Source: Escherichia coli (GTDB taxonomy: Bacteria > Pseudomonadota > Gammaproteobacteria > Enterobacterales > Enterobacteriaceae). Taken from it: a stretch of 64,000 nucleotides of DNA. A program made the translations under genes and the position numbers. The notes beneath the pieces are model-generated. The model was not told the DNA's origin, searched no databases, and saw only the letters and a list, made by a program, of their open reading frames with translations. The DNA lies in the NCBI RefSeq assembly GCF_001677475.2, contig NZ_CP015229.1; one strand, written 5' to 3'. Positions 10,122 to 58,497 of the stretch are shown here, piece by piece; the first letter of the stretch is position 1; the number at the start of each line of letters is the position of its first letter.

Positions 10122-10130
10122 TCAGCAAAT

Positions 10131-10146: not shown

Positions 10147-10204
10147 CTTTTTGGCGGAGGGCGTTGCGCTTCTCCGCCCAACCTATTTTTACGCGGCGGT
10201 GCCA

Positions 10205-12367: not shown

Positions 12368-12371
12368 CGTT

Positions 12372-12402
12372 GCGGAATGCGGTGCGCCACACCGCATTCC
12401 GC
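12372..12402. terminator. Perfect 13-bp inverted repeat (GCGGAATGCGGTG-N5-CACCGCATTCCGC) between convergent uvrD and DUF62 gene
   Basis: Direct reading; strong GC stem, no flanking U-tract. Confidence 0.4.
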
Positions 12403-12411
12403 ATCAGCACC

Positions 12412-13314: not shown

Positions 13315-13396
13315 TTTTGTTTCCCTTCATTTATCTGATAATTTTCCAGCTGTGTAGCCAGCCCCAGTTTGTCTGGCCTCCTCGAGTGTACAATGC

Positions 13397-14161: not shown

Positions 14162-14530
14162 TATAGGTCCTGGATGTGGGATTTTTTTATCCTGTTAGCG
14201 ACCTTGACGAGTACCAAAAAGCGCGAAGTTCAACTATTGTTCTGTGGTGTTCTGTTGCGTGTTGACGGCAAAATTTTGCTGGCGTAACATGCGCGCACGA
14301 TCACTCTAAGAGGACATTCGCCTTGGACACACCCAGTAGATACTGGCTCACTATCCTGTCATCCAGGATCAACTCCTAAGGCTATCCCTTTTTGCTGATA
14401 GCCTTAGCGGTTGTCAGCGACCTCAATTTTTCCCGTCGCGCTGAGTCAGGCTGTTTAATGGTCTGAAACCCAATTTGTTTCTGTGTGCCCACCGAACTGT
14501 CCGATATTTTAAGCATTGGGAGTCCCGGTC

Positions 14531-15481: not shown

Positions 15482-15488
15482 AAATAAG

Positions 15489-15518
15489 GCGGTGGCTTAG
15501 CCTGGCTAAGCCACCTGT
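15489..15518. terminator. Bidirectional rho-independent terminator between corA and yigF
   Basis: Hairpin GGTGGCTTAG-CCTGG-CTAAGCCACC with T-rich flanks on both strands. Confidence 0.55.
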
Positions 15519-15521
15519 TAT

Positions 15522-15902
15522 TCAAAGGCTCCAGGTATTTAACCCTTTTACCTCTTTCTCATAAAACCATTTGTTCGTGTTAACAGCAACATAGGCTGCT
15601 ACGGCAATTCCCAGAATGTTAACGCCAATTAGTGCACCAACAAATAGAGATAGAATGCCAAGTAATAGAACTATAATTGCTTTTTTCCATAATCCTAGAA
15701 CAAATAAATAGATCCAGGAACAGAAGAAAGCAATGAAATTCATTTGAATAGTTAATCGTTGTCTTACTTTTAATGTTTTAAATGCTGCTTTATATTCTGG
15801 TGTTGCCCCCCAGAATCCAGGAAAGCCATGTTGATCATAAAAATTAAATCGGTATTTCCATTTTTCACTTAATGAACCATCGTTCATATATTCCTTACTC
15901 AT
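15522..15902 (-). CDS. yigF: DUF2628 inner-membrane protein YigF
   Basis: ORF 15522-15944, start at internal Met for 126 aa; AT-rich. Confidence 0.75.
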   Translation of the reverse strand: MSKEYMNDGSLSEKWKYRFNFYDQHGFPGFWGATPEYKAAFKTLKVRQRLTIQMNFIAFFCSWIYLFVLGLWKKAIIVLLLGILSLFVGALIGVNILGIAVAAYVAVNTNKWFYEKEVKGLNTWSL

Positions 15903-15915
15903 AAATACACCATAA

Positions 15916-16296
15916 CTATTGTTTTGATGAATCAGTAGGTGCAAGCATTAGCATACTGAAAGTGGAAAAATAACAAATCAAAAAAATCATCGAACCATTG
16001 CCTGAACAATCAAAATGTTCGGCTATCATTGTGATGATAGAGATGATATATACTGCTAATGTACCAAAAACATAAGTTTTTATATATATGAAACCACTAT
16101 CACGGAGTCGTTGGCAATTCATGTTGATGACGAGATAATGGAGTGCGATGGTAGAGACAATAACAAGAAAACCTGCGTCCCCATCGTTAAAAAAGATAAT
16201 AAGAAAGGCAAAAATGAAATTTATTAAAATAAATGAAAATATATAACGACGTCTGGAAATCTTACCGTTAGATGTTGGGATAAATATACGCAACAT
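15916..16296 (-). CDS. yigG: DUF805-like inner-membrane protein YigG
   Basis: ORF 15916-16356, start at internal Met for 126 aa; AT-rich. Confidence 0.7.
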
Positions 16297-16390
16297 AAAT
16301 TTTACATCCTTGTGTGAGTCTCCTGTCAGCATGGCAATATGCCCACTCTCATGCAAGAGTCGGCATATTTTTTCAGAATATATTTATTTT

Positions 16391-17281
16391 TTATTTGGAC
16401 GTTCTACGCTGCGTATAAATCGCATCCATCACAAAAATTGCCAGCGCCACCCAAATAAAGGCGAAAGTCACCATCTTATCGGCACCCGGTTTTTCACCAT
16501 AAAACGTCACAGCCAGCAGGAACATCAGTGTCGGGCCAATGTACTGGAAAAAGCCTAACGTTGAGAGACGCAGGCGTGTCGCAGCTGCAGTAAAACACAA
16601 CAGCGGTACGGTAGTGACAATACCGGCAGCGATCAGCAGTAAATTCAGCGATATCGGGTTTTGCCCCATATGGCTGGTTGCGCTGTCGGCAATAGCAAAC
16701 AGGTAAATCGCCGCCACGGGCAGCAACCACATGGTTTCGATTAACATGCCGGTTTGCGCTTCAACGGCAATCTTCTTTCGTACCAGGCCGTAGAAGGCAA
16801 AACTAAACGCCAGCCCCAGCGCGATGATCGGCAGTGAACCAAAAGTCCACAACTGAACCAACACGCCACATATCGCCAGAATCACCGCCAGCCATTGCAT
16901 CCGGCGGAATCGCTCGCCGAGGAAAATCATCCCCAGCACAATGTTCACCAGCGGATTAATAAAGTAACCAAGGCTTGCTTCCAGCATATGGTGATTGTTC
17001 ACCGCCCAGATAAACAGTAGCCAGTTGCCACCAATCAGCACGGCAGAGACTGCCAGCATAAAAATTTTCTGTGGCGTCCGAATCAGCGTTTTTAAATAGG
17101 ACCACTGGCGGCAAATGCTCATCAGCACCACCATAAAGAAAAACGACCAGATCACGCGATGCGTCAGGATCTCATCGGCGGGCACGTAGTAAATCAGCTT
17201 GAAGTACGCTGGCGCAATACCCCAAATAAAATAAGCGGCAAGAGCGAGTAATACGCCCTGCCGCGTTTGTTTTGCATCCAT
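16391..17281 (-). CDS. rarD: EamA/DMT-family transporter RarD
   Basis: 296-aa polytopic membrane ORF. Confidence 0.9.
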   Translation of the reverse strand: MDAKQTRQGVLLALAAYFIWGIAPAYFKLIYYVPADEILTHRVIWSFFFMVVLMSICRQWSYLKTLIRTPQKIFMLAVSAVLIGGNWLLFIWAVNNHHMLEASLGYFINPLVNIVLGMIFLGERFRRMQWLAVILAICGVLVQLWTFGSLPIIALGLAFSFAFYGLVRKKIAVEAQTGMLIETMWLLPVAAIYLFAIADSATSHMGQNPISLNLLLIAAGIVTTVPLLCFTAAATRLRLSTLGFFQYIGPTLMFLLAVTFYGEKPGADKMVTFAFIWVALAIFVMDAIYTQRRTSK

Positions 17282-17332
17282 CGGGAATACTCATTTTTAA
17301 TTGGTAACAGCAGTTTACCTGCTTTTACGTTA

Positions 17333-17800
17333 TCAACCTACCATATAGGTGGCGGTGGCACTGGCAATATAAAGCTGTTCTTCATTGTGTAATTCAACGC
17401 GGGCGACGGCGACTTTATTGCCTGCACGCAACAGGCTACTGGTAGCAGTAAAACGCTCGCCCCTACCTGGGCGCAGATAATCAACGCGAAGATCAATGGT
17501 CCCCATCCGCGATAGCCGCTGGCGTAGTTCATCTTCACTGATGGTTTCGTGGCGGGTTAAGGTACTTCCCACGCACACCAGACCTGCGGCGACATCCAGC
17601 GCCGACGCAATGACCCCGCCGTGCAAAATGCTTTGCGCCCAGTTGCCCACCATCATCGGCTGATTTTTAAAGGCCAGCTGTGCGAACTCTTTTTCGTAAC
17701 GCTCCAGTTCCATCCCCAATGCGCGGTTAAATGGCATGTGATAAACAAACATCTCACCCACTAATTTCAGGGCTTGTTCAGCGGTCAGTACGGCAGACAT
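17333..17800 (-). CDS. yigI: Hotdog-fold acyl-CoA thioesterase YigI
   Basis: ORF 17333-17818, start at [18 protein letters not shown] for 155 aa. Confidence 0.8.
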
Positions 17801-22271: not shown

Positions 22272-23294
22272 ATGTTTCAGCAGCAAAAAGACTGGGAAAC
22301 AAGAGAAAACGCGTTTGCTGCTTTTACCATGGGACCGCTGACTGATTTCTGGCGTCAGCGTGATGAAGCAGAGTTTACTGGTGTGGATGACATTCCGGTG
22401 CGCTTTGTCCGTTTTCGCGCACAGCACCATGACCGGGTGGTAGTCATCTGCCCGGGGCGTATTGAGAGCTACGTAAAATATGCGGAACTGGCCTACGACC
22501 TGTTCCATTTGGGGTTTGATGTCTTAATCATCGACCATCGCGGGCAGGGACGTTCCGGTCGCCTGTTAGCCGATCCGCATCTCGGGCATGTTAATCGCTT
22601 TAATGATTATGTTGATGATCTGGCGGCATTCTGGCAACAGGAGGTTCAGCCCGGTCCGTGGCGTAAACGCTATATACTGGCGCACTCGATGGGCGGTGCG
22701 ATCACCACATTATTTCTGCAACGCCATCCTGGGGTATGCGACGCCATTGCGCTAACTGCGCCAATGTTTGGGATCGTGATTCGTATGCCGTCATTTATGG
22801 CACGGCAGATCCTCAACTGGGCCGAAGCGCATCCACGTTTCCGCGATGGCTATGCAATAGGCACCGGGCGCTGGCGCGCGTTGCCGTTTGCTATCAACGT
22901 ACTGACCCACAGCAGACAGCGATATCGACGTAACTTACGCTTCTATGCTGATGACCCAACGATTCGCGTCGGTGGGCCGACCTACCATTGGGTACGCGAA
23001 AGTATTCTGGCTGGCGAACAGGTGTTAGCCGGTGCGGGTGATGACGCCACGCCAACGCTTCTCTTACAAGCTGAAGAGGAACGCGTGGTGGATAACCGCA
23101 TGCACGACCGTTTTTGTGAACTCCGCACCGCCGCGGGCCATCCTGTCGAAGGTGGACGGCCGTTGGTAATTAAAGGTGCGTACCATGAGATCCTTTTTGA
23201 AAAGGACGCAATGCGCTCAGTCGCGCTCCACGCCATCGTTGATTTTTTCAACAGGCATAACTCACCCAGCGGAAACCGCTCTACAGAGGTTTAA
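22272..23294 (+). CDS. pldB: Lysophospholipase L2
   Basis: 340-aa ORF, alpha/beta hydrolase motif GHSMGG. Confidence 0.9.
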   Translation: MFQQQKDWETRENAFAAFTMGPLTDFWRQRDEAEFTGVDDIPVRFVRFRAQHHDRVVVICPGRIESYVKYAELAYDLFHLGFDVLIIDHRGQGRSGRLLADPHLGHVNRFNDYVDDLAAFWQQEVQPGPWRKRYILAHSMGGAITTLFLQRHPGVCDAIALTAPMFGIVIRMPSFMARQILNWAEAHPRFRDGYAIGTGRWRALPFAINVLTHSRQRYRRNLRFYADDPTIRVGGPTYHWVRESILAGEQVLAGAGDDATPTLLLQAEEERVVDNRMHDRFCELRTAAGHPVEGGRPLVIKGAYHEILFEKDAMRSVALHAIVDFFNRHNSPSGNRSTEV

Positions 23295-23301
23295 ATTTCT
23301 T

Positions 23302-24102
23302 ATGTACCAGGTTGTTGCGTCTGATTTAGATGGCACGTTACTTTCTCCCGACCATACGTTATCCCCTTACGCCAAAGAAACTCTGAAGCTGCTCACCGCG
23401 CGCGGCATCAACTTTGTGTTTGCGACCGGTCGTCACCACGTTGATGTGGGGCAAATTCGCGATAATCTGGAGATTAAGTCTTACATGATTACCTCCAATG
23501 GTGCGCGCGTTCACGATCTGGATGGTAATCTGATTTTTGCTCATAACCTGGATCGCGACATTGCCAGCGATCTGTTTGGCGTAGTCAACGACAATCCGGA
23601 CATCATTACTAACGTTTATCGCGACGACGAATGGTTTATGAATCGCCATCGCCCGGAAGAGATGCGCTTTTTTAAAGAAGCGGTGTTCAAATATGCGCTG
23701 TATGAGCCTGGATTACTGGAGCCGGAAGGCGTCAGCAAAGTGTTTTTCACCTGCGATTCCCATGAACAACTGCTGCCGCTGGAGCAGGCGATTAACGCTC
23801 GCTGGGGCGATCGCGTCAACGTCAGTTTCTCTACCTTAACCTGTCTGGAAGTGATGGCGGGCGGCGTGTCGAAAGGCCATGCGCTGGAAGCAGTGGCGAA
23901 GAAACTGGGCTACAGCCTGAAGGATTGTATTGCGTTTGGTGACGGGATGAACGACGCCGAAATGCTGTCGATGGCGGGGAAAGGCTGCATTATGGGCAGT
24001 GCGCACCAGCGTCTGAAAGATCTGCATCCGGAGCTGGAAGTGATTGGTACTAATGCCGACGACGCGGTGCCGCATTATCTGCGTAAACTCTATTTATCGT
24101 AA
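23302..24102 (+). CDS. yigL: HAD-family sugar/pyridoxal phosphate phosphatase YigL
   Basis: ORF 23176-24102; start at MYQVVASDLDGTLL gives 266 aa. Confidence 0.85.
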   Translation: MYQVVASDLDGTLLSPDHTLSPYAKETLKLLTARGINFVFATGRHHVDVGQIRDNLEIKSYMITSNGARVHDLDGNLIFAHNLDRDIASDLFGVVNDNPDIITNVYRDDEWFMNRHRPEEMRFFKEAVFKYALYEPGLLEPEGVSKVFFTCDSHEQLLPLEQAINARWGDRVNVSFSTLTCLEVMAGGVSKGHALEAVAKKLGYSLKDCIAFGDGMNDAEMLSMAGKGCIMGSAHQRLKDLHPELEVIGTNADDAVPHYLRKLYLS

Positions 24103-24177
24103 TCGTTCTTTATTTGGTCAGTTGTCAACCTGATACTTCGCTACAATGGATACTCGTTAATCAAAGAGTTTTCCATT

Positions 24178-25077
24178 GTGGCGCTACTTATCATCACCAC
24201 GATTCTGTGGGCCTTCTCCTTTAGCTTTTATGGCGAGTACCTTGCGGGGCACGTCGATAGCTATTTTGCGGTGCTGGCGCGCGTTGGCCTGGCGGCACTC
24301 GTTTTTCTGCCGTTTCTGCGTACCCGTGGCAATAGCCTGAAAACAGTCGGCCTGTATATGCTGGTGGGCGCGATGCAGCTCGGCGTGATGTATATGCTGA
24401 GTTTCCGCGCCTATCTCTACCTGACGGTCTCTGAACTGCTGCTGTTTACCGTGCTGACGCCGCTCTACATCACGCTGATTTATGACATTATGAGCAGACG
24501 TCGTCTGCGCTGGGGCTATGCCTTTAGCGCCTTGCTGGCGGTGATTGGTGCCGGGATTATTCGCTATGATCAGGTCACCGACCATTTCTGGACTGGCTTG
24601 TTGCTGGTGCAACTCTCCAATATCACTTTTGCCATCGGCATGGTGGGTTACAAACGCCTGATGGAAACTCGCCCGATGCCGCAGCATAACGCCTTTGCGT
24701 GGTTCTATCTTGGCGCGTTCCTGGTGGCGGTAATTGCATGGTTCTTGCTGGGCAATACGCAGAAAATGCCGGAAACAACGCTGCAATGGGGCATTCTGGT
24801 ATTTCTTGGCGTGGTGGCTTCAGGGATTGGCTACTTTATGTGGAACTACGGCGCGACGCAGGTGGACGCCGGAACGCTCGGCATTATGAACAATATGCAC
24901 GTTCCGGCAGGGCTGCTGGTTAACCTGGCTATCTGGCACCAACAGCCGCACTGGCCAACGTTTATTACAGGCGCGCTGGTGATCCTGGCCTCACTGTGGG
25001 TGCATCGTAAGTGGGTCGCTCCGCGCTCTTCACAAACGGCAGATGATCGCAGGCGTGATTGCGCGCTGAGCGAATAA
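24178..25077 (+). CDS. yigM: EamA/DMT-family transporter YigM
   Basis: 299-aa membrane ORF with GTG start. Confidence 0.8.
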
Positions 25078-25918
25078 ACGCTTCCGTAACTGGCTGACGC
25101 TGCTCTCCATCGCGCACGGCGGCGTAAAGTCGGCTCCACAAGCCTTCGCCCAGGGTTTTGGTCACCACCAGAACCTGGCGTTCAAAACTCTCTACTACCC
25201 AATGCGGTAGCGCGGCAATACCCATCCGCGCGGCAACCATCTGAATCAACAATAAGGTGTTATCGACGCTTTTCAGTGACGGGCTGACGCCTGCCGGCTG
25301 AAGAAAATGCCGCCAGACATCCAGTCGACTACGCTGTACCGGATAAATCAACAGCGTCTCGCTGGCTAGATCTTCCGGTGTAATTCGCGTTTTCGCCGCC
25401 AGTGGATGGTCAGGTGCTAACACCAGACGCACTTCATAATCGAACATCGGCGAATAATGCAGGCCACTGCGCGGCAGAATATCGGAGGTCATCACCAGAT
25501 CCAGCTCGCCCTGCTGCAACGCAGGCTGCGGGTCAAACGTTACGCCTGATTTAAAATCCATCTCGACCTGCGGCCAGTTCTTATGGAAATTTTCTAACGC
25601 GGGTGTCAGCCACTGAATACAGCTATGGCACTCAATGGCAATACGCAGGCGCGTTTGCTGCGGTTCATTGCAGGCTTGCAGTGCCTGACTGATTTGCGGC
25701 AGTACCTGGTTTGCCAGTTGCAATAGGATTTCTCCCTGCGGCGTAAAACGTAGCGGCTGGCTTTTACGCACAAATAGCCGGAAGCCAAGGCGTTGTTCCA
25801 GATCGCTAAACTGGTGAGACAGGGCGGATTGCGTCTGATGCAACGTCGCCGCAGCGGCTGCGAGCGAGCCGCAATTCCGCAACGCTTGTAGCGTTTTCAG
25901 GTGTTTTACTTCGATCAT
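24965..25918 (-). CDS. metR: LysR-family transcriptional activator MetR
   Basis: 317-aa [40 protein letters not shown]; divergent from metE. Confidence 0.9.
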
Positions 25919-26035
25919 GAAAGTCCTTCACTTCGGCATGAATAATTTGCGCTTGAGGAATATACAGTAACCGCCAATTATGGATGTGTAAACATCTGGA
26001 CGGCTAAATACTAAAAATTCCATAAGGGGCATATA
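25919..26035. promoter_or_regulatory. metR/metE divergent promoter region with MetJ box-like repeats and MetR site
   Basis: AACATCTGGACGGCT resembles tandem met boxes (AGACGTCT consensus); position between metR and metE. Confidence 0.5.
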
Positions 26036-28297
26036 ATGACAATTCTTAATCACACCCTCGGTTTCCCTCGCGTTGGCCTGCGTCGCGAGCTGAAAAAAGC
26101 GCAAGAAAGTTATTGGGCGGGGAACTCCACGCGTGAAGAATTACTGGCAGTAGGGCGTGAATTGCGTGCTCGTCACTGGGATCAACAAAAGCAGGCGGGT
26201 ATCGACCTGCTGCCGGTGGGCGATTTTGCCTGGTACGATCATGTTCTGACCACCAGCCTGCTGCTGGGTAACGTTCCGGCGCGTCATCAGAATAAAGACG
26301 GTTCGGTGGATATCGACACCCTGTTCCGTATTGGTCGCGGTCGTGCGCCAACTGGTGAACCTGCGGCGGCGGCAGAAATGACCAAATGGTTTAACACCAA
26401 CTATCACTACATGGTGCCGGAATTCGTTAAAGGCCAACAGTTCAAACTGACCTGGACGCAGCTGCTGGATGAAGTAGACGAGGCGCTGGCGTTGGGTCAC
26501 AAGGTGAAACCTGTGCTTCTGGGGCCGGTTACCTGGCTGTGGCTGGGTAAGGTGAAAGGTGAACAGTTTGACCGCCTGAGCCTGCTGAACGACATTCTGC
26601 CGGTTTATCAGCAGGTTCTGGCAGAACTGGCCAAACGTGGTATTGAGTGGGTACAGATTGACGAACCGGCGCTGGTGCTGGAACTGCCGCAGGCGTGGCT
26701 GGATGCGTATAAACCTGCTTACGATGCACTCCAGGGGCAGGTGAAACTGCTGCTGACCACCTATTTTGAAGGTGTAACGCCAAACCTTGACACGATTACT
26801 GCGCTGCCTGTTCAGGGGCTGCATGTGGACCTTGTACATGGTAAAGATGACGTTGTTGAACTGCACAAGCGTTTGCCTTCTGACTGGTTGCTGTCTGCGG
26901 GTCTGATCAATGGTCGTAACGTCTGGCGCGCCGATCTCACCGAGAAATATGCGCAAATTAAGGACATTGTCGGCAAACGTGATTTGTGGGTGGCATCTTC
27001 CTGCTCACTGCTGCATAGCCCCATCGACCTGAGCGTGGAAACGCGTCTTGATGTAGAAGTGAAAAGCTGGTTTGCCTTCGCCCTACAAAAATGCCATGAA
27101 CTGGCACTGCTGCGCGATGCGCTGAACAGTGGTGACACGGCAGCTCTGGCAGAGTGGAGCGCCCCAATTCAGGCGCGTCGTCACTCAACCCGCGTACATA
27201 ATCCGGCGGTAGAAAAGCGTCTGGCAGCGATCACCGCCCAGGACAGCCAGCGTGAGAATGTCTATGAAGTGCGTGCCGAAGCTCAGCGTGCGCGTTTTAA
27301 ACTGCCAGCGTGGCCGACCACCACGATTGGTTCTTTCCCGCAAACCACGGAAATTCGTACCCTGCGTCTGGATTTCAAAAAGGGTAATCTCGACGCCAAC
27401 AACTACCGCACGGGCATTGCGGAACATATCAAGCAGGCCATTGTTGAGCAGGAACGTTTAGGACTGGATGTGCTGGTACATGGCGAGGCTGAGCGTAATG
27501 ACATGGTGGAATACTTTGGCGAGCACCTCGACGGGTTTGTCTTTACGCAAAACGGTTGGGTACAGAGCTACGGTTCCCGCTGCGTGAAGCCACCGATTGT
27601 TATTGGTGACGTTAGCCGCCCGGCACCGATTACCGTGGAGTGGGCGAAGTATGCGCAATCGCTGACCGACAAACCGGTGAAAGGGATGCTGACCGGCCCG
27701 GTGACGATTCTCTGCTGGTCGTTCCCGCGTGAAGATGTCAGCCGTGAAACCATCGCCAAACAAATTGCGCTGGCGCTGCGTGATGAAGTGGCGGACCTGG
27801 AAGCCGCAGGAATTGGCATCATCCAGATTGATGAACCGGCGCTGCGCGAAGGTTTACCGCTGCGTCGCAGCGACTGGGATGCCTATCTCCAGTGGGGCGT
27901 GGAGGCTTTCCGTATCAACGCCGCCGTGGCGAAAGATGACACACAAATCCACACTCACATGTGTTACTGCGAGTTCAACGACATCATGGATTCGATTGCT
28001 GCACTGGACGCAGACGTCATCACCATCGAAACCTCGCGTTCTGACATGGAGTTGCTGGAGTCGTTCGAAGAGTTTGATTATCCGAATGAAATCGGTCCAG
28101 GCGTCTATGACATTCACTCGCCAAACGTACCGAGCGTGGAATGGATTGAAGCCTTGCTGAAGAAAGCGGCAAAACGCATTCCGGCAGAGCGCCTGTGGGT
28201 CAACCCGGACTGTGGCCTGAAAACGCGCGGCTGGCCAGAAACCCGCGCGGCACTGGCGAACATGGTGCAGGCGGCGCAGAATTTGCGTCGGGGATGA
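26036..28297 (+). CDS. metE: Cobalamin-independent methionine synthase
   Basis: 753-aa [32 protein letters not shown]. Confidence 0.95.
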
Positions 28298-28334
28298 TGA
28301 ATATTAACGAGTCACTGTAAATTGCAGTACGATA

Positions 28335-28365
28335 ATGGCTTCCAGCACTGGAAGCCATTTTGCTA
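28335..28365 (+). terminator. metE rho-independent terminator
   Basis: Hairpin ATGGCTTCC-AGCACT-GGAAGCCAT followed by TTT. Confidence 0.6.
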
Positions 28366-28390
28366 TGTGTGCTGGGTATTAAAAGGATTC

Positions 28391-29287
28391 TCAGGAACAG
28401 AAAATTAATTGCGGATTTCTTAAATATTCCATGCACCACTGGCAGGCTTTGCCCATACCATCGGAACGAGCGGCAAGAAATAACTTGGTGGCGTGTTTAT
28501 GTTCGCGCATTGGCTTTTTAAGCAATTTACCGCTGTTTAATAATGGCAATGCCAGATGATGTGGAATATAGCCAATACCGACGTTTTGTTCTATTAAGGC
28601 GATTGCCGTAGCGAAGTCAGGAACAAAAATGGGTTTTTGTCCTTCCAACAGCCAGGCTTGCATCGGGGGAAAGTTAACGGAGGTATCGCGGATACAAACC
28701 GCCGGATAATGACGCAATTCACTGTTTTCTAATGGATGCCGCTTCGCTGCCAGTGGGTGGAGTGGGCTGACGACAAAATCCCATTCCATTTGTCCGATCG
28801 GTTCGCTAATGATGCCTTCACTGCTTGGCACTGCATGAGGAGCACCGTAGACCAGATCGGCACGCTTACTGTACAGAGCATCCCAGCAGCCGTTGTATAC
28901 CTCAAGATCAACCGTCAGCGTTGTTGATGTGAATTGCCGTTCAAAATCTCGAATAAATGCCACCAGCAAATCACCAGGAATAATATTGTTCACCGCAATT
29001 GTTAGTTCACGCTCAATACCATCGTGAATCAGCACTGTGTTGCGCTTTAATGCTTCCAGGTCGCCAAGAATAGTTTTGCTATGTTCGATGAAGTAACTCC
29101 CCGCCGGAGATAATTCAATATAGCGTCCCTTACGAATGAACAGTTCAACGCCCAGGCTCTCTTCCGCTTTCTTGATGGTGTAACTGATGGCGGAAGGGAC
29201 TTTATTTAACTGCTCGGCTGCGGTGGTAATGCTCTGGTGTCTGGCGACCAGATGAATAACACGAAGCGTTTCGTCTGAGATGAACAT
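28391..29287 (-). CDS. LysR-family transcriptional regulator (island)
   Basis: 298-aa ORF; N-terminal HTH LVARHQSITTAAEQLNKVPSAISYTIKKAEESLGVELFIR. Confidence 0.85.
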   Translation of the reverse strand: MFISDETLRVIHLVARHQSITTAAEQLNKVPSAISYTIKKAEESLGVELFIRKGRYIELSPAGSYFIEHSKTILGDLEALKRNTVLIHDGIERELTIAVNNIIPGDLLVAFIRDFERQFTSTTLTVDLEVYNGCWDALYSKRADLVYGAPHAVPSSEGIISEPIGQMEWDFVVSPLHPLAAKRHPLENSELRHYPAVCIRDTSVNFPPMQAWLLEGQKPIFVPDFATAIALIEQNVGIGYIPHHLALPLLNSGKLLKKPMREHKHATKLFLAARSDGMGKACQWCMEYLRNPQLIFCS

Positions 29288-29364
29288 AAGGCTCCCTGGT
29301 CAGTGGTAAAGTGGCTGAATCTCTCCAGATTCAGCCGTAATCATTGCTTGAGTATACTCAGGAA

Positions 29365-30588
29365 TTAGCGGCGTTGACTTGCCCGACTGAGAATCGCATA
29401 CGCGATACATGCCACCAGAATCGAGTCTACCGAAGGGATCGTCGTCAGGGTGAATAAGCCTTTGACGGTCATAAAGCCAACCGCTGCGCCTATGATCCAT
29501 GCCGCGAATGTCAGCACTTTAATCTGTGACTCCTGGGCTAACACTGACTCTTGATAGCCATTACGGCGATAAAGGAAAAAGTCAGCGATATAAATTCCGG
29601 CAACGGGTGGCGTGGCGATACCGAGGAACAGCAGAAACGGAATAAACCACGCCATAATATCCAGACTGCCTACGATGGCGGAAAGGATACCCAGCGCCAC
29701 GGTAATCTGCCATTTTGGAAAGCGGGTAAGCAGTGTGGAAACCACCAGCGTGCCCTGGAACATATTGCCCGCGTTACCGGTGACGCAGGCGAAAATCAAC
29801 AACAGCGCCGCGGGCAGAACCGCACCGAATACCGCCATAGCACCCAGTAAAGATCCCTGACCACTAATGGCGCTCGGCGTTGCACCCGCCCAGTAGAGCA
29901 GAGGGTAGGCAACCAGAAACGTCACGCTTGCGGCAATCAGCGCATGTTTGCGGTTATGCACAAAACTACCGAAATCAGGCAGTGTGGCAACCAGCACAAT
30001 AATGGTGCCAACAACGGTGGAAACGGCGACACCCGTATTCATCTCCACAATCGCCGCTGGTGCTGTCACTTCGGTATGGGTTGCCACATAGAGGATGTAA
30101 CACAGCACCAGCGCGATAACCGGCACGGCAACCTGGGCAATTTTTCCCAGAACGGCAAAACCAAATGCCGTAGAGGCGATAAAAATGACACAGCCAGCCG
30201 CCACTAACAGTGCTAGTGGAACTTCCAGTCCATGTTGAGCCAGTAAGTCATGTACCGAATGACCAAACATATTGGCGGTAACGGCAATCCAGCCGAACAG
30301 ACTTATCGCCATCAAAATGTTAATGGCGATGGCCCCTTTTTCGCCAAACGAATATTTCACAATGCCATACGTTGGCAGGCGGGCTTTTTCTCCCACGCTA
30401 ATAGTGATGGCTGAAAGTAAGGTCAGAATGACGCCGCCTAACAATACGACGCTAATTAAACTGCCGCTGGAAAGTTGATTGCCGAGGCTTGAGGATGACA
30501 ACAGCACAGGTGTGACGGCAATACCCAACAAAATCATGGCAATACGCAATCCTGATGCCGTATTCAGACTCTCTTCTTTTTTACGCAT
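29365..30588 (-). CDS. NCS1-family (CodB-like purine/cytosine-type) permease (island)
   Basis: 407-aa polytopic membrane ORF; CodB-like segments incl. GIYIADFFLYRRNGY. Confidence 0.8.
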   Translation of the reverse strand: MRKKEESLNTASGLRIAMILLGIAVTPVLLSSSSLGNQLSSGSLISVVLLGGVILTLLSAITISVGEKARLPTYGIVKYSFGEKGAIAINILMAISLFGWIAVTANMFGHSVHDLLAQHGLEVPLALLVAAGCVIFIASTAFGFAVLGKIAQVAVPVIALVLCYILYVATHTEVTAPAAIVEMNTGVAVSTVVGTIIVLVATLPDFGSFVHNRKHALIAASVTFLVAYPLLYWAGATPSAISGQGSLLGAMAVFGAVLPAALLLIFACVTGNAGNMFQGTLVVSTLLTRFPKWQITVALGILSAIVGSLDIMAWFIPFLLFLGIATPPVAGIYIADFFLYRRNGYQESVLAQESQIKVLTFAAWIIGAAVGFMTVKGLFTLTTIPSVDSILVACIAYAILSRASQRR

Positions 30589-30613
30589 AGTATGTTCCCT
30601 TTAAAAATGCGCG

Positions 30614-31003
30614 TTACACAGTATGAAAATGCCCGGTGTATTTGCGCCAGCTACCCAGTTCTGTAATTTCCCGTTGGCCTTCTGTGAGCCAGTTTTCAGC
30701 CAGTACACCGAGCACTTCGCTACCATCGGCAAGTTTGATTTTGCCTATTGCCAGCCCGGCAGGTTCGCTCATTAACAGAGCGGCAAAACTGGCCAGCGGT
30801 AGTTGCCAAATTTCTACGTCGACGTGTGTTCCACCTTCATTCACGCGAATCATTCCTGGATGGCGATCGTTAATACTCCACAGCCGGTAATGGGCGTCAG
30901 TTCTGTCTTCACGGACAAAAATGCCGCCCGCTTTTTGCATATTTGGGTTAAGTTCCAGGCCGCGCATCAGTGTTCCGTTAACGGCTAAAAGCGTTGTAGT
31001 CAT
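30614..31003 (-). CDS. Small protein resembling the allophanate hydrolase C-terminal (GGCT-like) domain (island)
   Basis: 129-aa ORF; LLAVNGTLMRGLELN...EIWQLPLASFAALLMSEPAGLAIGKIKLADGSEVLGVLAE pattern; recognised from memory of the domain, not searched. Confidence 0.5.
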   Translation of the reverse strand: MTTTLLAVNGTLMRGLELNPNMQKAGGIFVREDRTDAHYRLWSINDRHPGMIRVNEGGTHVDVEIWQLPLASFAALLMSEPAGLAIGKIKLADGSEVLGVLAENWLTEGQREITELGSWRKYTGHFHTV

Positions 31004-31019
31004 TATGTTCTCCAGAAAA

Positions 31020-31976
31020 TTAAAGGGTTATCCATGTACCGCTCTGATGCGCCAGGGCCGCTTTTATGGTTTGCGGTGAGGTAATCAGGCCGCTGGCCTG
31101 TTTGCCTTGTTGCTGGCTGGTATTGATGAAATCAACAATGGCTTCCACTTTGGGTTGCATACTGCCGACACCAAATTGACCTTCCCGCAACAGTGTTTGC
31201 GCTTCGGCAACGCTAATGGCGTCGAGCCACTGTTGTTGTGGTGTACCAAAGTTAATCGCCACTTTTTCTACTCCGGTGGGTATCACCAGCAGATCCGCAC
31301 CTAACTGACTGGCGAGCAGCGCGGAGGCCAGATCTTTATCGATCACGGCTTCCACACCTTTCAGTTGTTGCCCGTCTCGCACCACCGGAATGCCGCCGCC
31401 GCCGCAGGCAATAACCAGATATCCCTGTCGCACCAGATGAGCGATGGTGTTGTGTTCAATAATTTCCAGTGGCGCAGGAGAGGGAACCGTACGCCGCCAC
31501 CCGCGCCCGGCATCCTCCATCAGAGTCCAGCCGAGCTGCTGCTGGCGTTGTTGGGCCGTTGCTTCATCGAGAAACGCGCCAATCGGTTTACTGGGGCTGG
31601 CGAAAGCATCGTCATGTGGGCTAACTCGCGTTTGTGTCACTAGCGCAATTACCGGTTTGTTTATGCCACGGCGAGCGAGTTCGTTATGCAGCGCCTTCTG
31701 GAACATGTAGCCAATTGCGCCTTGTGTATCACCCACGGCGTAATCAAGCGGAACCGGAGAAACTTCGTTACAAGCAAGTTCAGAGCGACGCAGAATAAAG
31801 CCCACCTGCGGTCCATTACCGTGGGTTAGCACCAGATCCCATCCGGCTTCAACCATATCAACGATATGCTGCACGCTTTCCATCACTGCAACATATTGAT
31901 CGGGAATACTATTGTGTTGATCGTCTTGAATGAGCGCATTGCCGCCAACCGCGACAACAGCCAGTGGCTTAACCAT
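31020..31976 (-). CDS. Carbamate kinase (island)
   Basis: ORF 31020-32306; start at internal MVKPLAVVAVGGNAL (318 aa) overlapping the upstream gene stop by 8 nt; amino-acid-kinase fold motifs. Confidence 0.85.
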   Translation of the reverse strand: MVKPLAVVAVGGNALIQDDQHNSIPDQYVAVMESVQHIVDMVEAGWDLVLTHGNGPQVGFILRRSELACNEVSPVPLDYAVGDTQGAIGYMFQKALHNELARRGINKPVIALVTQTRVSPHDDAFASPSKPIGAFLDEATAQQRQQQLGWTLMEDAGRGWRRTVPSPAPLEIIEHNTIAHLVRQGYLVIACGGGGIPVVRDGQQLKGVEAVIDKDLASALLASQLGADLLVIPTGVEKVAINFGTPQQQWLDAISVAEAQTLLREGQFGVGSMQPKVEAIVDFINTSQQQGKQASGLITSPQTIKAALAHQSGTWITL

Positions 31977-33393
31977 GATGATTCTCCTTTGCGACGATCT
32001 CAGCCAGTGCACGTATAGCGGCGACAAAACAGGCCATCGGCGCAGTGGTGATCCCGGCACCAATTTGCCCGACTCCCGCTTGTTTGTGGGCGATACCCGT
32101 ATTGATGACCGGTAAAATGCCGCGATCGGTAACTTTACGCGCATCAATCCCTGCTGCGGTGGGGGCAAAATTGAGGGCAGGAAGTGTAAATGCGGGGTTA
32201 CCGCCGAGGGTGATTGCCTGCATCCGACGGCTGTTATTGGTGGCATCGGCAGGTGTGCCTCCCACAAATTTAACGATTGCCGGAGATGACGCCATCGCGA
32301 AGCCACCTACACCAGCGGTTTCGGTAATTGCGCTATCGCCCAAGTCAGCAGCGGCGTCGTCAACGCCAAATCCAGGGAAGAACAGACCTTCAACTGCATT
32401 GGCGGGAGCCTGGAACCAGCGATCGCCAGTACCGGAAAGCCGAATACCAAAATTCACCCCGTTACGCGCCATCACCGTAACCATTGAACTGAACGGTACA
32501 TTGGCGGCGGCATCCATCATTGCTTTACAGGCAGCCATCGACAGATTGAGGAAGAAGTGATCGTTACCGGTGATAAATGCTACGACGCGCTGGATATGTT
32601 CCTGTGGAAGAGAGCGGGCCAGCAATGCCGGGATCAGACGCTTAATCAGCAAACCGGTAGCGGCAGCATTGCGGTTATGAACTTCATCCCCCATATGTAG
32701 CGCCTGCGCCATTAATGGCTTGAGTTCCAGCTCGCCGTGTTGTGCGATTGCTGCTTTCATTGCCGGAGCCAGTTCATCGCGCATCCAGGCCAGACGATTG
32801 AGAACTTCGTCGTTATTGGCGCCAAAACGGAGAACCTTACCCAGACCTTCATTGAAATTACTAAAAGTACGATGACCGTTGGTTTTATTTTCCACCACCC
32901 ATAACGGCATTGACGGGCTGATGATGCCTGCCATTGGTCCAACCGCGTGATAATGATGACAAGGGGCAAGGTCGATTTCGCCTGCGTTTATCTGGTTTTC
33001 TGCGTCTTGCTGGCTGGTGGCCCAACCTTCGTACAGCATGGCACCAATAATCGCCCCTTTTACCGGACCACACATCTCTTCCCAGGTAATCGGCGGGCCA
33101 GAGTGCAAAATACGTTTTTGTTCAGCCATTGCTGGAATGGCCTCTTTAGCGAGCATGACATCCACCAGCACGGGCTGTGCTTCGAGATAACGTGTCATGG
33201 CGATTTGGTTGGCATTTTCTACCAGTGGATGACGTAGCAACGATGCCAGATCCAATCCAGCGTCAATATCGCCTTGTGCTGGTGGCTGCCAGTTGAGTGC
33301 AATTGCGCTTCCCCCGGCATGTTGAATATTGTCAGCAAAACTGTGTAGTCCCGCGTTCACGACCTTCAAAGACTGATTAAATAAGGTATTCAT
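31969..33393 (-). CDS. DUF1116 protein, YahG/YlbE-like (island)
   Basis: ORF 31969-33444; start at MNTLFNQSLKVVNAG (474 aa) forms ATGA overlap with FdrA-like stop. Confidence 0.8.
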   Translation of the reverse strand: MNTLFNQSLKVVNAGLHSFADNIQHAGGSAIALNWQPPAQGDIDAGLDLASLLRHPLVENANQIAMTRYLEAQPVLVDVMLAKEAIPAMAEQKRILHSGPPITWEEMCGPVKGAIIGAMLYEGWATSQQDAENQINAGEIDLAPCHHYHAVGPMAGIISPSMPLWVVENKTNGHRTFSNFNEGLGKVLRFGANNDEVLNRLAWMRDELAPAMKAAIAQHGELELKPLMAQALHMGDEVHNRNAAATGLLIKRLIPALLARSLPQEHIQRVVAFITGNDHFFLNLSMAACKAMMDAAANVPFSSMVTVMARNGVNFGIRLSGTGDRWFQAPANAVEGLFFPGFGVDDAAADLGDSAITETAGVGGFAMASSPAIVKFVGGTPADATNNSRRMQAITLGGNPAFTLPALNFAPTAAGIDARKVTDRGILPVINTGIAHKQAGVGQIGAGITTAPMACFVAAIRALAEIVAKENHHG

Positions 33394-34949
33394 GCGTTTA
33401 GCCCCTTTTTCTGCAACTGAGTCTGTGCAACGGTGCTGGCCCATAGCGCCGCCTGTGCATTGCTGCTGGCGATGATGACCCCTGCATTTTGTAGTGCGCT
33501 TATCTGCTGGCTGCGTATTTGCGGATCAGCTTCCGTTCCGCAAACGTGCGCAATCAGCAACGGTGCGTTATTCATGTCGATGTGTGAAAGTTGGTCCAGT
33601 AATTCGCTGGCAGGCGTCGTGGAAGCGCCATAACCAAGTACCAGGTCGAATAACACGACGGCAGTGTGTGAGTCGTTGAGTTCGTTGAGCAGACGTTGAT
33701 TGCGCAGAGTCGGATCGATCATTGGATGCGGTTTGCCACGGGTGAAATCATCGTCGCCCATATCGATCAACGTGTGATCTTCGCTTTGCCAGATATTTGC
33801 CAGAGCACGATTACCCGCAACTGGCGTATTGGAAGCTGCGCTGAATCCCTTTTGTTGGCAGATAAGTTGCGCTTCGTAGCAGAAGGTTCCTCCGGCGAAA
33901 ACACCGCGTATCGCCTGGCGATGGGCTGGCAGGCGCTGGCAGGCGTTTTGTAACATTGTGAGATCGTCGCAGGGTACATCGGTTTCGACAGCCGGAAATG
34001 GCTGAGCATTCAGTAACGCCACAGCGATGTCGGCGGCGCTGGCAAGTGTGGTGGCGGCAGTGATATTGGGACGTGCCAGATCATGCGGATTCGCCCCGAG
34101 GAAATTCACCACCACGGGTTTTCCACAAGCCTCGGCGCGCTCCAGAATAGTCCGGGCAACGATCGGTGAAGGCGGTTTTGAAATAAGCACAATCACGCGA
34201 GTTTCATCGTCTTGCGCCAGCGCATCTAAAGCGAAGAGCATCGATATTCCACTAATCTCTTCACTGAGATCATGTCCGCCTGTTCCCAACGCCTGAGAAA
34301 TACCCGCTCCGAGCTGGTCGATTCGGCAAGTCACTTCCTGTAGCCCGGTGCCTGACGCGCCAATAACACCAATCGCTCCACGTTTCACCACATTGGCGAA
34401 GCCTAACGGAATGCCGTTAACGATGGCGGTTCCACAGTCAGGTCCCATTACGATGCGCTGACGTTCTCGGGCAAGTGTTTTGATGGATTTTTCCTGCGCG
34501 ATACTGACGTTATCGCTGAACATCATCACGTTCATTCCGAGGTTTAACGCTTTAATTGCTTCGGCGGCGGCGTAGTCTCCCGGTACAGAAATGAGTGCCA
34601 GGTTGGCTTCGGGTTCGGCTTCCAGTGCCATTTCCAGGCTGACCTTTTCCGGTGTTTTAATGCCACTACCCGTTTCATCATCGGGTTTGCTGGTCAGACG
34701 TTGCTGGGCCAGTACCAGTGCTTCATTGCAAATATCTTCTTCACCCATGACTGCAATCACTAAATCATTGGGACTGGCGTTGATTTCGTTACCCAGACCC
34801 ACATCGCGCAATTGTTCGAGATTATTGGGTGTTCCCATGACGACCGAAGCCTGTTGAATACCGGGCAATTTGCTGATTTGCGCGGAAATCTGCATCAGAG
34901 AAACCGAGTCCTGATAAAGATTGCTGAGAACTTTATGTTTAACTTTCAT
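33390..34949 (-). CDS. FdrA/YahF-like protein (succinyl-CoA-synthetase-alpha-like CoA-binding fold) (island)
   Basis: 519-aa ORF; GxGxxG-type glycine-rich segments VIGASGTGLQEV, LGTGGHDL. Confidence 0.8.
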   Translation of the reverse strand: MKVKHKVLSNLYQDSVSLMQISAQISKLPGIQQASVVMGTPNNLEQLRDVGLGNEINASPNDLVIAVMGEEDICNEALVLAQQRLTSKPDDETGSGIKTPEKVSLEMALEAEPEANLALISVPGDYAAAEAIKALNLGMNVMMFSDNVSIAQEKSIKTLARERQRIVMGPDCGTAIVNGIPLGFANVVKRGAIGVIGASGTGLQEVTCRIDQLGAGISQALGTGGHDLSEEISGISMLFALDALAQDDETRVIVLISKPPSPIVARTILERAEACGKPVVVNFLGANPHDLARPNITAATTLASAADIAVALLNAQPFPAVETDVPCDDLTMLQNACQRLPAHRQAIRGVFAGGTFCYEAQLICQQKGFSAASNTPVAGNRALANIWQSEDHTLIDMGDDDFTRGKPHPMIDPTLRNQRLLNELNDSHTAVVLFDLVLGYGASTTPASELLDQLSHIDMNNAPLLIAHVCGTEADPQIRSQQISALQNAGVIIASSNAQAALWASTVAQTQLQKKGLNA

Positions 34950-35043
34950 GCTGTTACGCCTGTTTCATTCCGCCCGATAGTAAAATTCGGGCAAAGCATC
35001 CCCGTGTAGCGCCATAAATGAGCTACAGGAGAAAAGGTTGAAA

Positions 35044-35904
35044 TCAATTCATGGTGTTCAGGGTTCGAAAGCCATGCAGCATTCCTGCAAGGCAATCCAC
35101 TCCTGACGTTGCGCCAAATTGCATGACCTGTTCTGCACAGGATGCGATTGTCATTGCCGATGCGCCCCCAACCAGTTGTGCGAGTAACTGGCAAATCGGT
35201 TCTGAAAAATGCCCCCGAAGCGCACGCTCCAGATAATGACGACTGATGTCAGTGGTGTTGTGCGCATGTTGATCAATTGCCTGCTGCAACCGGTATTGAT
35301 GAGCGGCAAGTGGTGCAGGTAGTTGCCATAACCAGAGCGCTGCCAGATAGCCCAACAAATAGTCATCTCCATCGGGAGTTAAGCCTTTGCCAAAGCCGAT
35401 CAGTTGTGGCACCTGGCGTTCCAGCGCATCTGGATGTTCCATAATCTCTAATCCCTGGTGCGTGAGACTATCCGGCAGGTGCAATGTGCTTTGAACGTTA
35501 TGCTCCAGACAAAATAAAAGCCGTTGCGATGCCATCGTTGGGTAGTGCTGGAAAACCAAAGGGAACGCCTCAAGTGTCAGCCTTCCTCCCACAAATGACG
35601 GCTGCCAGAGCGTTGCGTTATCGAGAGCCACACAAAAGCGAGGTGTCTGCAGCAAGCCTGGGGTTAACTGAACGGGATCGGAATGGGCAATCTCTCTTCG
35701 CCAGTCCCAACGCTTAGGCAGCCAGACTCTGGCAGCATCAGGGAGATTCAGATACGTTTGCGCACACAACAGGGTGATGAATGTTCCCGCTTCTGAATAC
35801 AGATTTACCGCATGTTTAAAAGCACTGTGCAGACGTAAATCTTGCGTTTCATTCCACGGGAAAAGATATCCCAACGACGATGCGCAAAGCGTAACCTGTA
35901 CCAT
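35044..35904 (-). CDS. DUF2877 protein, YahE/YlbF-like (island)
   Basis: 286-aa ORF located where yahE/ylbF sit relative to FdrA-like genes; 5-nt gap to upstream gene. Confidence 0.65.
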   Translation of the reverse strand: MVQVTLCASSLGYLFPWNETQDLRLHSAFKHAVNLYSEAGTFITLLCAQTYLNLPDAARVWLPKRWDWRREIAHSDPVQLTPGLLQTPRFCVALDNATLWQPSFVGGRLTLEAFPLVFQHYPTMASQRLLFCLEHNVQSTLHLPDSLTHQGLEIMEHPDALERQVPQLIGFGKGLTPDGDDYLLGYLAALWLWQLPAPLAAHQYRLQQAIDQHAHNTTDISRHYLERALRGHFSEPICQLLAQLVGGASAMTIASCAEQVMQFGATSGVDCLAGMLHGFRTLNTMN

Positions 35905-35909
35905 CGGTG

Positions 35910-36578
35910 TTAGCCTTCCAGGCCTGCAATAATGGCTTTGGAATCAGTAACCCAACCGAAAATGGCACCTTGTGCTTTGATCATCTCCAGGGCGTATTTC
36001 TGGAATTCCGGGAAATAGGAGCCAACGCAATCTTCCGGGATGATGCACTCATAACCACGATCATTCGCTTCGCGCACGGTGGTGGTCACACAGACTTCCG
36101 TGGTTACTCCGCAAACAATCAGCGTTTTGATGCCGTGGTTTTGCAAAATCAGATGTAAGTCGGTTTGATAAAAAGCGCCTTTGCCGGGTTTATCAATCAC
36201 CGGTTCGCCTGCGACCGGGTACAGTTCAGGAATGATGTCATGACCTGCTTCACCTCTGACCAGAATGCGCCCCATCGGGCCTGCTTCACCAATAAAGGTT
36301 TTACCGCCGCGCGTCAGTTTGGCTGGTGGGCAGTCGCTTAAGTCTGCACGATGGCCTTCACGGGTATGAATAACCATAATTCCTTTTTGACGTGCGGCTG
36401 CCAGCACCTCTGTACATGGAGCGATAGCCGTGCGTACCAGTGAAACATCATTGCCCAGTGCCTCACCGAAGCCCCCTGCTTCGACAAAGTCACGCTGCAT
36501 GTCGATCATGACCAGTGCAGTTGTGCGCGGATCAAAAGGTAATTCAAAGGGTTGAGCCTGAAAAATGGATTGCGTCAT
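35910..36578 (-). CDS. Isochorismatase-family cysteine amidohydrolase (island, first gene of operon)
   Basis: 222-aa ORF; LVMIDMQRDF, conserved Cys in LIVCGVTTEVCV; good SD GGAGA upstream. Confidence 0.8.
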   Translation of the reverse strand: MTQSIFQAQPFELPFDPRTTALVMIDMQRDFVEAGGFGEALGNDVSLVRTAIAPCTEVLAAARQKGIMVIHTREGHRADLSDCPPAKLTRGGKTFIGEAGPMGRILVRGEAGHDIIPELYPVAGEPVIDKPGKGAFYQTDLHLILQNHGIKTLIVCGVTTEVCVTTTVREANDRGYECIIPEDCVGSYFPEFQKYALEMIKAQGAIFGWVTDSKAIIAGLEG

Positions 36579-36665
36579 GGTAAATCTCCTGTCTGATGTT
36601 TAAACGATCCAGTTGTTCTGAGAACGAGTATTCAGGAGAAAAGCGGCACAAAACAGGAAAAAAGT

Positions 36666-36772
36666 TTGCCGCACAGCAACGAAATTTTTGCATTCAGCAG
36701 GCGGCGTGATGACGAATGTGAAGGGGGTCAAATCGTGGCATACAGCAACAAAATTTTTGATGCTGTATGGTT
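36666..36772. promoter_or_regulatory. Island operon promoter/operator region with two copies of a palindromic motif (ACAGCAAC-R-AAATTTTTG) 70 bp apart
   Basis: Direct reading: copies at ~36673-36692 and ~36743-36762; second copy within 9-bp inverted repeat CATACAGCA-N13-TGCTGTATG. Confidence 0.4.
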
Positions 36773-36835
36773 TTGAGTTTAAAAAAATCGTTGAAATTGT
36801 GTGAGCTTAAGCACCTGAGTTAGCTGCTATGGTGG

Positions 36836-37645
36836 TTATTTTTTAACACCATACTGCTTAAACCACTCCAGCATACGCTGCCAGCCATCTTTTGCAGATG
36901 CGGCATGATAGCTCGGGCGATAATCAGCGTTGAATGCATGCCCGGCGTCCGGGTACACGATAATCTCTGCTTTCGCATTAGCAGCCCGCAGCGCCTGGCG
37001 CATGGTTTCAACGCTCTCCTGCGGAATGCTGTTATCCTGACCACCATATAAGCCGAGAACCGGCGCGTTAAGATCGGTTGCGATATCAACAGGTTGTTTC
37101 GGTGAATTCAGCGACTTATCGCCTGTCAGTTTGCCGTACCATGCCACCGCCGCTTTCAGTTGCGGGTTATGCGCAGCATACAGCCAGGTGATACGTCCAC
37201 CCCAGCAGAATCCGGTGATCATTAAACGATGAACATCGCCGCCGTTGCGGGAAGCCCAACTGGCGACATGATCGAGATCGGCCAGCACCTGCGAGTCAGG
37301 CACTTTTGCTACCAGACCGCTAAGCAACGTGGGGATATCGGCAAAATCATTCGGATCGCCTTCGCGGAAGTAAAGTTCAGGTGCGATAGCCAGATATCCC
37401 TCCAGCGCCAGACGGCGACAAATGTCGCGGATATGTTCATGCACGCCAAAAATTTCCTGCACTACAATGACCACTGGCAGTGGGCCATCGCTTTGCTTTG
37501 GTCTGGCATGGTAAGCAGGCATGTTATCCCCTTGTGAGGGGATAGAGGTGAAGCCCGCCGCAATCGCGTCGTCCGGGGTCTGAACGATGGTCGAAGCGAG
37601 AGGCGATGCAGCAGGTGCAAATCCAGATTGTTGTGTTGTTGCCAT
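36836..37645 (-). CDS. ysgA: Dienelactone hydrolase-family protein YsgA
   Basis: ORF 36836-37711; start at MATTQQSGF; alpha/beta hydrolase. Confidence 0.85.
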   Translation of the reverse strand: MATTQQSGFAPAASPLASTIVQTPDDAIAAGFTSIPSQGDNMPAYHARPKQSDGPLPVVIVVQEIFGVHEHIRDICRRLALEGYLAIAPELYFREGDPNDFADIPTLLSGLVAKVPDSQVLADLDHVASWASRNGGDVHRLMITGFCWGGRITWLYAAHNPQLKAAVAWYGKLTGDKSLNSPKQPVDIATDLNAPVLGLYGGQDNSIPQESVETMRQALRAANAKAEIIVYPDAGHAFNADYRPSYHAASAKDGWQRMLEWFKQYGVKK

Positions 37646-38668: not shown

Positions 38669-38808
38669 TCCTCTTCTCCTGTCTGAAGGCCGACGCGTTC
38701 GGCCTTTTGTATTTTTGCGTAGCGCCTCGCAGGAAATGCCTTTCCAACTGGACGTTTGTACAGCACAATTCTATTTTGTGCGGGTAAGTTGTTGCGTCAG
38801 GAGGCGTT

Positions 38809-58420: not shown

Positions 58421-58497
<77 letters not shown>

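Follow-up and report, generated by a model that had tools for sequence, protein, structure and literature searches.

The space between metE and ysgA in the 64,000-nucleotide stretch of Escherichia coli DNA analysed here (the window) holds a block of eight genes that K-12 does not have. This raises the question of how such a segment came to be present in some strains and missing in others, whether by integration of a mobile element, by loss from K-12-like strains, by gain from another enterobacterium or by exchange at a fixed site. The explanation we favour, with a probability of about 0.6, is that the space between the convergent genes metE and ysgA is a multi-version locus, in which the block would be an old resident that is exchanged as whole versions. 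The features of the locus are as follows.

26036–28297, plus strand: metE, ending GGA TGA
28298–28390: metE–LysR spacer, 93 bp, found in the non-K-12 versions of the locus only
28334–28363, plus strand: hairpin with a short U-tract (stem-loop 28334–28359, loop GCAC)
28360–28403: fast-evolving 44-bp stretch, its right end being the final four codons of LysR with their stop (IFCS-stop)
28403/28404: module boundary AAAT/TAATTG, where B2 strains have an extra 7.6 kb and where the plasmid copies start
28391–29287, minus strand: LysR-family regulator, last gene of the block (stop codon 28391–28393)
29365–30588, minus strand: permease of the cytosine/purine/allantoin family (Pfam)
30614–31003, minus strand: small protein like the C-terminal domain of allophanate hydrolase (AH_C-like; Pfam)
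31020–31976, minus strand: carbamate kinase, arcC-like (RefSeq start; the longest possible ORF extends to 32306)
31969–33393, minus strand: AllG/YlbE-like protein (DUF1116; Pfam)
33390–34949, minus strand: FdrA/AllF-like protein (Pfam)
35044–35904, minus strand: AllH/YlbF-like protein (DUF2877; Pfam)
35910–36578, minus strand: cysteine hydrolase of the isochorismatase family, first gene of the block (Pfam)
36579–36835: right spacer upstream of the operon, 257 bp, kept in the B2 and plasmid copies
36836–37645, minus strand: ysgA, dienelactone hydrolase family, its last codons and stop lying inside the variable segment

Alignment with K-12 placed the end of homology at 28293 and its restart at 36847. 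Between these breakpoints, 8.55 kb in the window (28294–36846) stood in place of 59 bp in K-12. A sequence-only reading of the window had delimited an insert of about 8.3 kb, which agrees well with this segment of roughly 8.5 kb absent from K-12. Both terminators fell within the variable segment, as did the stop codon of metE and the final codons of ysgA. At the 3′ end of metE, the last sense codon was GGA in the window and GGG in K-12, followed by TGA and TAA, respectively, and the C-terminal tail of YsgA read YGVKK-stop in the window versus YGGKKSL-stop in K-12. The K-12 metE–ysgA spacer was 39 bp long, contained a different hairpin (CCGGGTGG-TAATA-CCACCCGG) and showed no similarity to the window spacer. 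Remnants of the K-12 spacer were sought in the block-bearing loci, and just chance 9–12-mers were found. Because both junctions carry unrelated sequence, with homology ending at the metE stop and inside the last ysgA codons, an origin of the K-12 arrangement by precise deletion is excluded. This had been one of the two routes proposed in the sequence-only reading. The other, gain by homologous replacement, fared better in part: an exchange of entire versions by way of the flanking genes would fit better than deletion does. The possibility that the window is not from E. coli was ruled out. Its three largest aligned blocks were 97.7–98.1% identical to K-12 and all ORFs were intact, and by these measures the window is a divergent natural lineage of the species.

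The metE terminator had been described as retained at this junction. A hairpin did follow the metE stop at 28334–28359, but the K-12 hairpin was unrelated to it, and the window hairpin belonged to the variable segment. The window hairpin consisted of a perfect 11-bp stem (AAUGGCUUCCA / UGGAAGCCAUU) with the loop GCAC, followed by UUGCU. It began 36 nt past the metE stop, and the LysR stop lay 31 nt past the stem, close behind it as had been noticed before. The 93-nt spacer folded with an energy of –29.5 kcal/mol (z = –3.55 against dinucleotide shuffles). The U-tract was short, with four U, two of them within the stem, and then GCU. The consensus terminator scan of the window did not call the hairpin at 28334–28359, and on the minus strand the hairpin had no usable U-tract. 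Overall, its position and fold make it a probable intrinsic terminator of metE. In K-12 there was likewise a stem-loop right after the metE stop between the convergent genes. However, the K-12 hairpin had U-rich tails on both strands and can serve both genes, whereas the window hairpin has its U-tract on the metE side only. The window hairpin was common to all non-K-12 versions (BL21, B2 and the Hcp-only version described below), with changes in the loop and the top pair. The 93-bp spacer would then be the left edge of one version of the locus, carrying the metE terminator hairpin peculiar to that family of versions.

All eight ORFs of the block belonged to regulator, permease or enzyme families in Pfam. 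The matches included AllG (1.8e-98) and AllH (5e-27), together with Ligase_CoA, CoA_binding and AA_kinase, so that an AllFGH-type carbamoyltransferase gene set with a carbamate kinase is predicted in the block. In E. coli, the enzymes of allFGH and ybcF have already been characterised (PMC11326118, PMC9843812). Like the oxamic transcarbamylase genes allFGH (fdrA-ylbE-ylbF) with the carbamate kinase gene allK/ybcF, the block has FdrA-type, AllG and AllH domains beside a carbamate kinase. It is nevertheless a distinct cluster, to which an isochorismatase-family hydrolase, an AH_C-like protein, a permease and a LysR regulator of its own belong. Judged by their domains, the eight genes form a paralogue of the set of allFGH and carbamate kinase, with a hydrolase, a permease and a regulator in addition. 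Within the right spacer, we noted two copies of ACAGCAAC[G/A]AAATTTTTG, at 36673–36690 and 36742–36759. The second copy lay inside a palindrome, CATACAGC-N15-GCTGTATG, with arms at 36739–36746 and 36762–36769. In the B2 block both repeats were kept, and in the plasmid block they were kept in part. These repeats are candidate binding sites for the LysR-type regulator.

The versions of the site were counted in 5426 complete E. coli genomes. The K-12-type empty junction was the most frequent (3537 genomes, about 65%), and the eight-gene block was found in 1553 (about 29%), so the segment is a real presence/absence polymorphism and not universal, as the sequence-only reading had supposed. The left junction of the window, with metE directly beside LysR, occurred in 363 of the 1553 block-bearing genomes. 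About 1190 genomes had a 16-kb form typical of B2 strains, which was thus approximately three times commoner than the window form. In this form, a further 7.6 kb between the hairpin and LysR held two hypothetical genes, tssD/Hcp, hxlB, a PTS IIBC gene (ptsG-like), tkt1 and an RpiR regulator. A module with Hcp only was found in 366 of the 5426 genomes by its right junction (about 7%). In one Hcp-only version, about 130 inserted bp, which included a REP-like element GCCGGACAAGGCGTTCACGCCGCATCCGGC, separated the hairpin from the metE stop (about 6435–6565 of the retrieved locus). Thus the metE–ysgA site exists in at least four versions in E. coli. The same core genes flank alternative contents within one species, namely an empty site, the block in two forms and the Hcp-only module, as expected of a variable locus. 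The E. coli pan-genome has hotspots of integration and recombination that are flanked by core genes. The metE–ysgA site resembles them in its constant core flanks, its strain-variable contents and the lack of mobility genes. Unlike them, it has one content that is conserved at the same site in several genera.

Part of this variation has been described before. A 16-kb genomic island named after tkt1 was reported in APEC O1 and B2 ExPEC between metE and ysgA (Li et al., BMC Microbiol 2012, PMC3349570). The authors listed these eight ORFs and found no flanking direct repeats, integrases or transposases (PMC3349570). The same region is listed in a 2026 genome paper. The window genes occupy the same site and correspond to APECO1_2639 to APECO1_2632, with about 96.8% DNA identity to a B2 strain. 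In contrast to the tkt1 island, the window is without the left 7.6 kb (two hypothetical genes, Hcp/tssD, sugar isomerase, PTS IIBC, tkt1 and the RpiR regulator), and its LysR gene abuts the metE hairpin and ends in a different four-codon tail. The window block is therefore the right half of the published island, and the core of the finding is already known and ordinary. The sequence-only reading had missed this 2012 publication (PMC3349570), as well as the four or more versions of the locus and the nature of the left junction as a module boundary.

The left junction was examined against the BL21 and B2 types. Homology between the window and B2 stopped at 28372 in a megablast search or at 28403 in a more sensitive search, and restarted at 28404. 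Base by base, the window matched B2 past the hairpin as far as ...AGAAAT, and from TAATTG onwards it matched the end of the B2 LysR gene. Since the window thus amounts to the left B2 part joined to the right B2 part, 28403/28404 appears to be a module boundary inside the last LysR codons. The LysR C-termini differed accordingly, with ...NPQLIFCS-stop in the window and BL21, ...NPQLMTQFVFN-stop in B2 and ...NKQFMA-stop on plasmids. Across the junction, a 100-bp query was 88.8% identical to BL21-type sequence and 82% identical to B2-type sequence, against about 96–97% in the flanks. Despite the 11% difference over this query, the AAAT/TAATTG junction was identical in the window and BL21 haplotypes. 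A junction that is identical in haplotypes differing by 11% around it is likely to be old.

Two orders of events could connect the two forms of the block. We think it likely that direct adjacency of metE and LysR is older than the 16-kb B2 form, because LysR adjoins metE in Citrobacter, Lelliottia and most Buttiauxella and the junction is common to the 11%-diverged haplotypes. Alternatively, the left junction of the window could be secondary, the 8.3-kb form being the 16-kb tkt1 island minus 7.6 kb from the hairpin region to the LysR 3′ end, in which case the deletion would have made the IFCS-stop tail out of non-coding DNA. Several observations are what such a deletion would leave: the post-hairpin sequence of the B2 and Hcp-only versions is homologous to window 28360–28403 (TCAGGAGTAGAAAT vs TCAGGAACAGAAAAT), the left and right B2 parts meet in the window at an AT/TAA microhomology, and the 16-kb form is the commoner one. 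However, with LysR directly beside metE in the outgroup genera, two events would be needed instead of one, and haplotypes that differ by 11% around the junction have AAAT/TAATTG in common. The LysR tails of the outgroups match neither form, which also gives the deletion no help. We therefore regard a secondary origin of the junction as rather unlikely. The LysR tails were also tried as a direct test of the order of the 8.3-kb and 16-kb forms, and this was abandoned as the ...ARLSGG-type tails of the outgroups matched neither. With direct adjacency taken as the older state, the 16-kb B2 form may have arisen by insertion at the LysR 3′ end.

Alignment of the junctions with other Enterobacteriaceae, which the sequence-only reading had suggested along with the K-12 comparison, showed that the site is occupied by the block outside E. 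coli as well. The cross-genus scan covered one genome per species and found 46 loci. Citrobacter sp. On2M, Buttiauxella noackiae and Buttiauxella izardii all had the same eight genes between metE and ysgA, with order and orientation unchanged. For C. amalonaticus, Lelliottia sp. and Buttiauxella sp. A111, LysR adjoined metE in the retrieved part of the locus. LysR was directly convergent on metE, at a distance of 52–276 bp, in all these outgroup loci except that of B. izardii. At other genome sites, the block was present in Edwardsiella, Serratia, Rahnella, Burkholderiales and Vibrionaceae. Empty metE–ysgA sites were found in Salmonella and C. sedlakii, each with its own hairpin or REP element. 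The only Escherichia record in the one-genome-per-species scan was E. coli E69, and other Escherichia species seem to be without the block. Full-length AllH-like clusters with identities between those of 64% (Citrobacter) and 87% were likewise missing from the protein search. A search for the site in other Escherichia by way of YsgA homologues was discarded, as the clusters at 88–90% came from genomes 81–82% identical to K-12 at the DNA level. One such non-Escherichia genome had an empty site, with a REP element beside a truncated gene that is probably metE. In an enterobacterium about 81% identical to K-12 in DNA, a radical SAM/SPASM/SEC-C gene lay between ysgA and metE (10881–12176 of the retrieved locus).

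The age of the block was estimated from third codon positions. Among four E. coli copies, these differed by 3–15% in the block and by 3.5–20% in metR, metE, ysgA and udp. As the diversity of the block within E. coli is about that of its flanks, by this comparison its age reaches back at least to the diversification of the species. Divergence among the four copies was mosaic from gene to gene, with the permease gene nearest to the B2 copy and the hydrolase gene nearest to the E69 copy, which suggests recombination inside the block. Against Citrobacter, third-position differences were 41–60% in the block and 30–48% in the flanks. The block being as diverged as the flanks or more, by these values it did not pass recently between the genera. 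Composition differed mildly. The GC content was 51.6% in the block and 52–53.5% in the flanks, GC3 was 0.514 versus 0.587 ± 0.041, and the RSCU correlation was 0.855 versus 0.966 ± 0.013 for subsets of flank genes. The codon-usage comparison proposed in the sequence-only reading thus gave only a mild deviation, which also fits weakly expressed genes. The YsgA tail followed the contents of the site to some extent. It was YG[V/S/A]KK-stop in block-bearing genomes of three genera and YGGK... in empty E. coli and empty Citrobacter-like loci, but not in Salmonella.

No sign of a mobility apparatus was seen in the window. Integrase, recombinase and transposase genes were absent among the eight block ORFs (Pfam), and no tRNA or tmRNA target lay at the junctions, the only tRNAs of the 64-kb window being those at 58421–58615 in the rRNA operon, about 20 kb away. 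The longest word common to both junctions, direct or inverted, was 7 nt. Words of at least 6 nt were found in 300 of 300 shuffles and words of at least 7 nt in 267 of 300, so the search for short direct repeats yielded nothing beyond a usual length. No IS copies or IS ends were found in the window at the block edges. On all these points the sequence-only reading, which had seen no integrase, transposase, tRNA target or flanking repeat, was borne out.

Copies of the block are nonetheless carried by mobile DNA. Diverged copies, about 93% identical to the window, were found on 82 conjugative plasmids in PLSDB, mostly from Escherichia and including those of APEC strains. The plasmid block was bracketed by a 136-bp direct repeat, whose copies on the E. 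coli plasmid p673 (9754–9889 and 18440–18575 of the retrieved stretch) were 97% identical. This repeat was present twice in nearly all of the 86 PLSDB plasmids that had it. Its first 100 bases or so were about 92% similar to chromosomal sequence annotated under transposase genes of the IS200/IS605 family. Rfam scans of the plasmid repeat and of the junctions gave nothing above chance. Plasmid homology to the window ran from 28404 to 36848, and the 13-bp vestige of the ysgA stop region that it includes points to capture from a chromosome. In Salmonella enterica contigs (about 9100–17500), we noted another copy, 96.7% identical to the chromosomal block of Citrobacter sp. On2M, with IS genes and reverse-transcriptase genes of group II introns on its flanks. 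This copy matched only the inter-gene stretch of the Citrobacter chromosome, and its limits again point to capture in the direction from chromosome to plasmid. Two independent captures onto mobile DNA are thus seen in these comparisons, an Escherichia-type block on APEC-type plasmids and a Citrobacter-type block in Salmonella.

These copies bear on the suggestion of the 2012 paper, in which the block would be a decayed mobile element that has since lost its integrase or transposase gene and its repeats. The 82 conjugative plasmids with the block between repeats resembling an IS200/IS605-family end, and the Citrobacter-type copy beside IS and group II intron genes, speak in favour of such an element. 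However, the window has no remnant of one, the block occupies the same site in the same orientation in four genera, and both the ysgA vestige and the extent of the Salmonella copy indicate movement away from the chromosome. We regard a decayed element as very improbable. An ancient gain deserves more weight, though we still hold it to be the less probable course. The ancestral Escherichia site would have been empty, as in Salmonella and K-12, and homologous recombination in metE and ysgA-udp would have brought the block, along with the adjoining gene ends, from a different enterobacterium into an early E. coli lineage. Spread within the species would then have followed by the same flanking-homology route. 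Such a gain is in keeping with the want of a copy in the representatives of other Escherichia species and of an AllH-like cluster of intermediate identity, with the empty sites of Salmonella, C. sedlakii and 65% of E. coli genomes, and with the codon usage of the block, which is mildly off that of the flanks. The pattern of YsgA tails would also suit a version that travels with the gene end. Against it, third positions of the closest non-Escherichia copy differ by 41–60%, as much as those of the flanks or more, and the depth of block diversity in E. coli means that any gain must predate the diversification of the species. In addition, the absence from other Escherichia was judged from one genome per species.

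Long residence with exchange of whole versions, our preferred explanation, agrees with the position of the breakpoints, one at the stop codon of metE and the other within the final codons of ysgA, and with the lack of repeats there. The block would be an old chromosomal resident of this exact site, and not a recently integrated mobile element. Its presence or absence among strains would change by whole-version exchange, through homologous recombination in metE and ysgA-udp. The empty K-12 version would represent a separate old version or an ancient replacement, and not a deletion scar. The observations listed above for an ancient gain, other than the YsgA tails, count against a residence as deep as the genus. 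The consequences for annotation are simple. The block should not be taken for a hidden mobile element, nor K-12 for its deletion mutant, and the block is better annotated as one of several versions that a variable site of the core genome can have. The question of ancestry also becomes sharper, with the same site occupied in three other genera and an age at least that of E. coli diversification. More tentatively, the metE–ysgA gap could be a cassette-exchange site that operates across genera. An ancient operon for the breakdown of carbamoyl compounds would there be kept as a presence/absence polymorphism in several genera of Enterobacteriaceae, each version travelling with the last ysgA codons, and plasmids would have captured it repeatedly.

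Other variable stretches were noted near the locus. In the alignment with K-12, a gap between the regions of yigE and uvrD marked about 1 kb of window sequence (12394–13396) that K-12 does not have. About 5.4 kb separated udp from rmuC in B2 strain 317 (22302–27741 of the retrieved locus) and in several further genomes. This insert encoded a tripartite tricarboxylate transporter and an IclR regulator and included dgoK/dgoA-like genes. The udp-rmuC spacer of the window (38669–38808) had none of it, which marks another variable site, 2 kb away from metE–ysgA. On the other side of metE, the metR–metE spacer (25919–26035, with the break at 26009–26034) was 117 bp long in the window. That of K-12, at 236 bp, has an additional stretch with CCCCGGTCACTTACTTCAGTAAGCTCCCGGGG, which we take to be ERIC/IRU-like. 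The short spacer was at one point considered unique to the window, and this was rejected when 100% matches were found in many E. coli genomes. Judged by these matches, the metE promoter region commonly varies among E. coli genomes by the presence or absence of the additional stretch.
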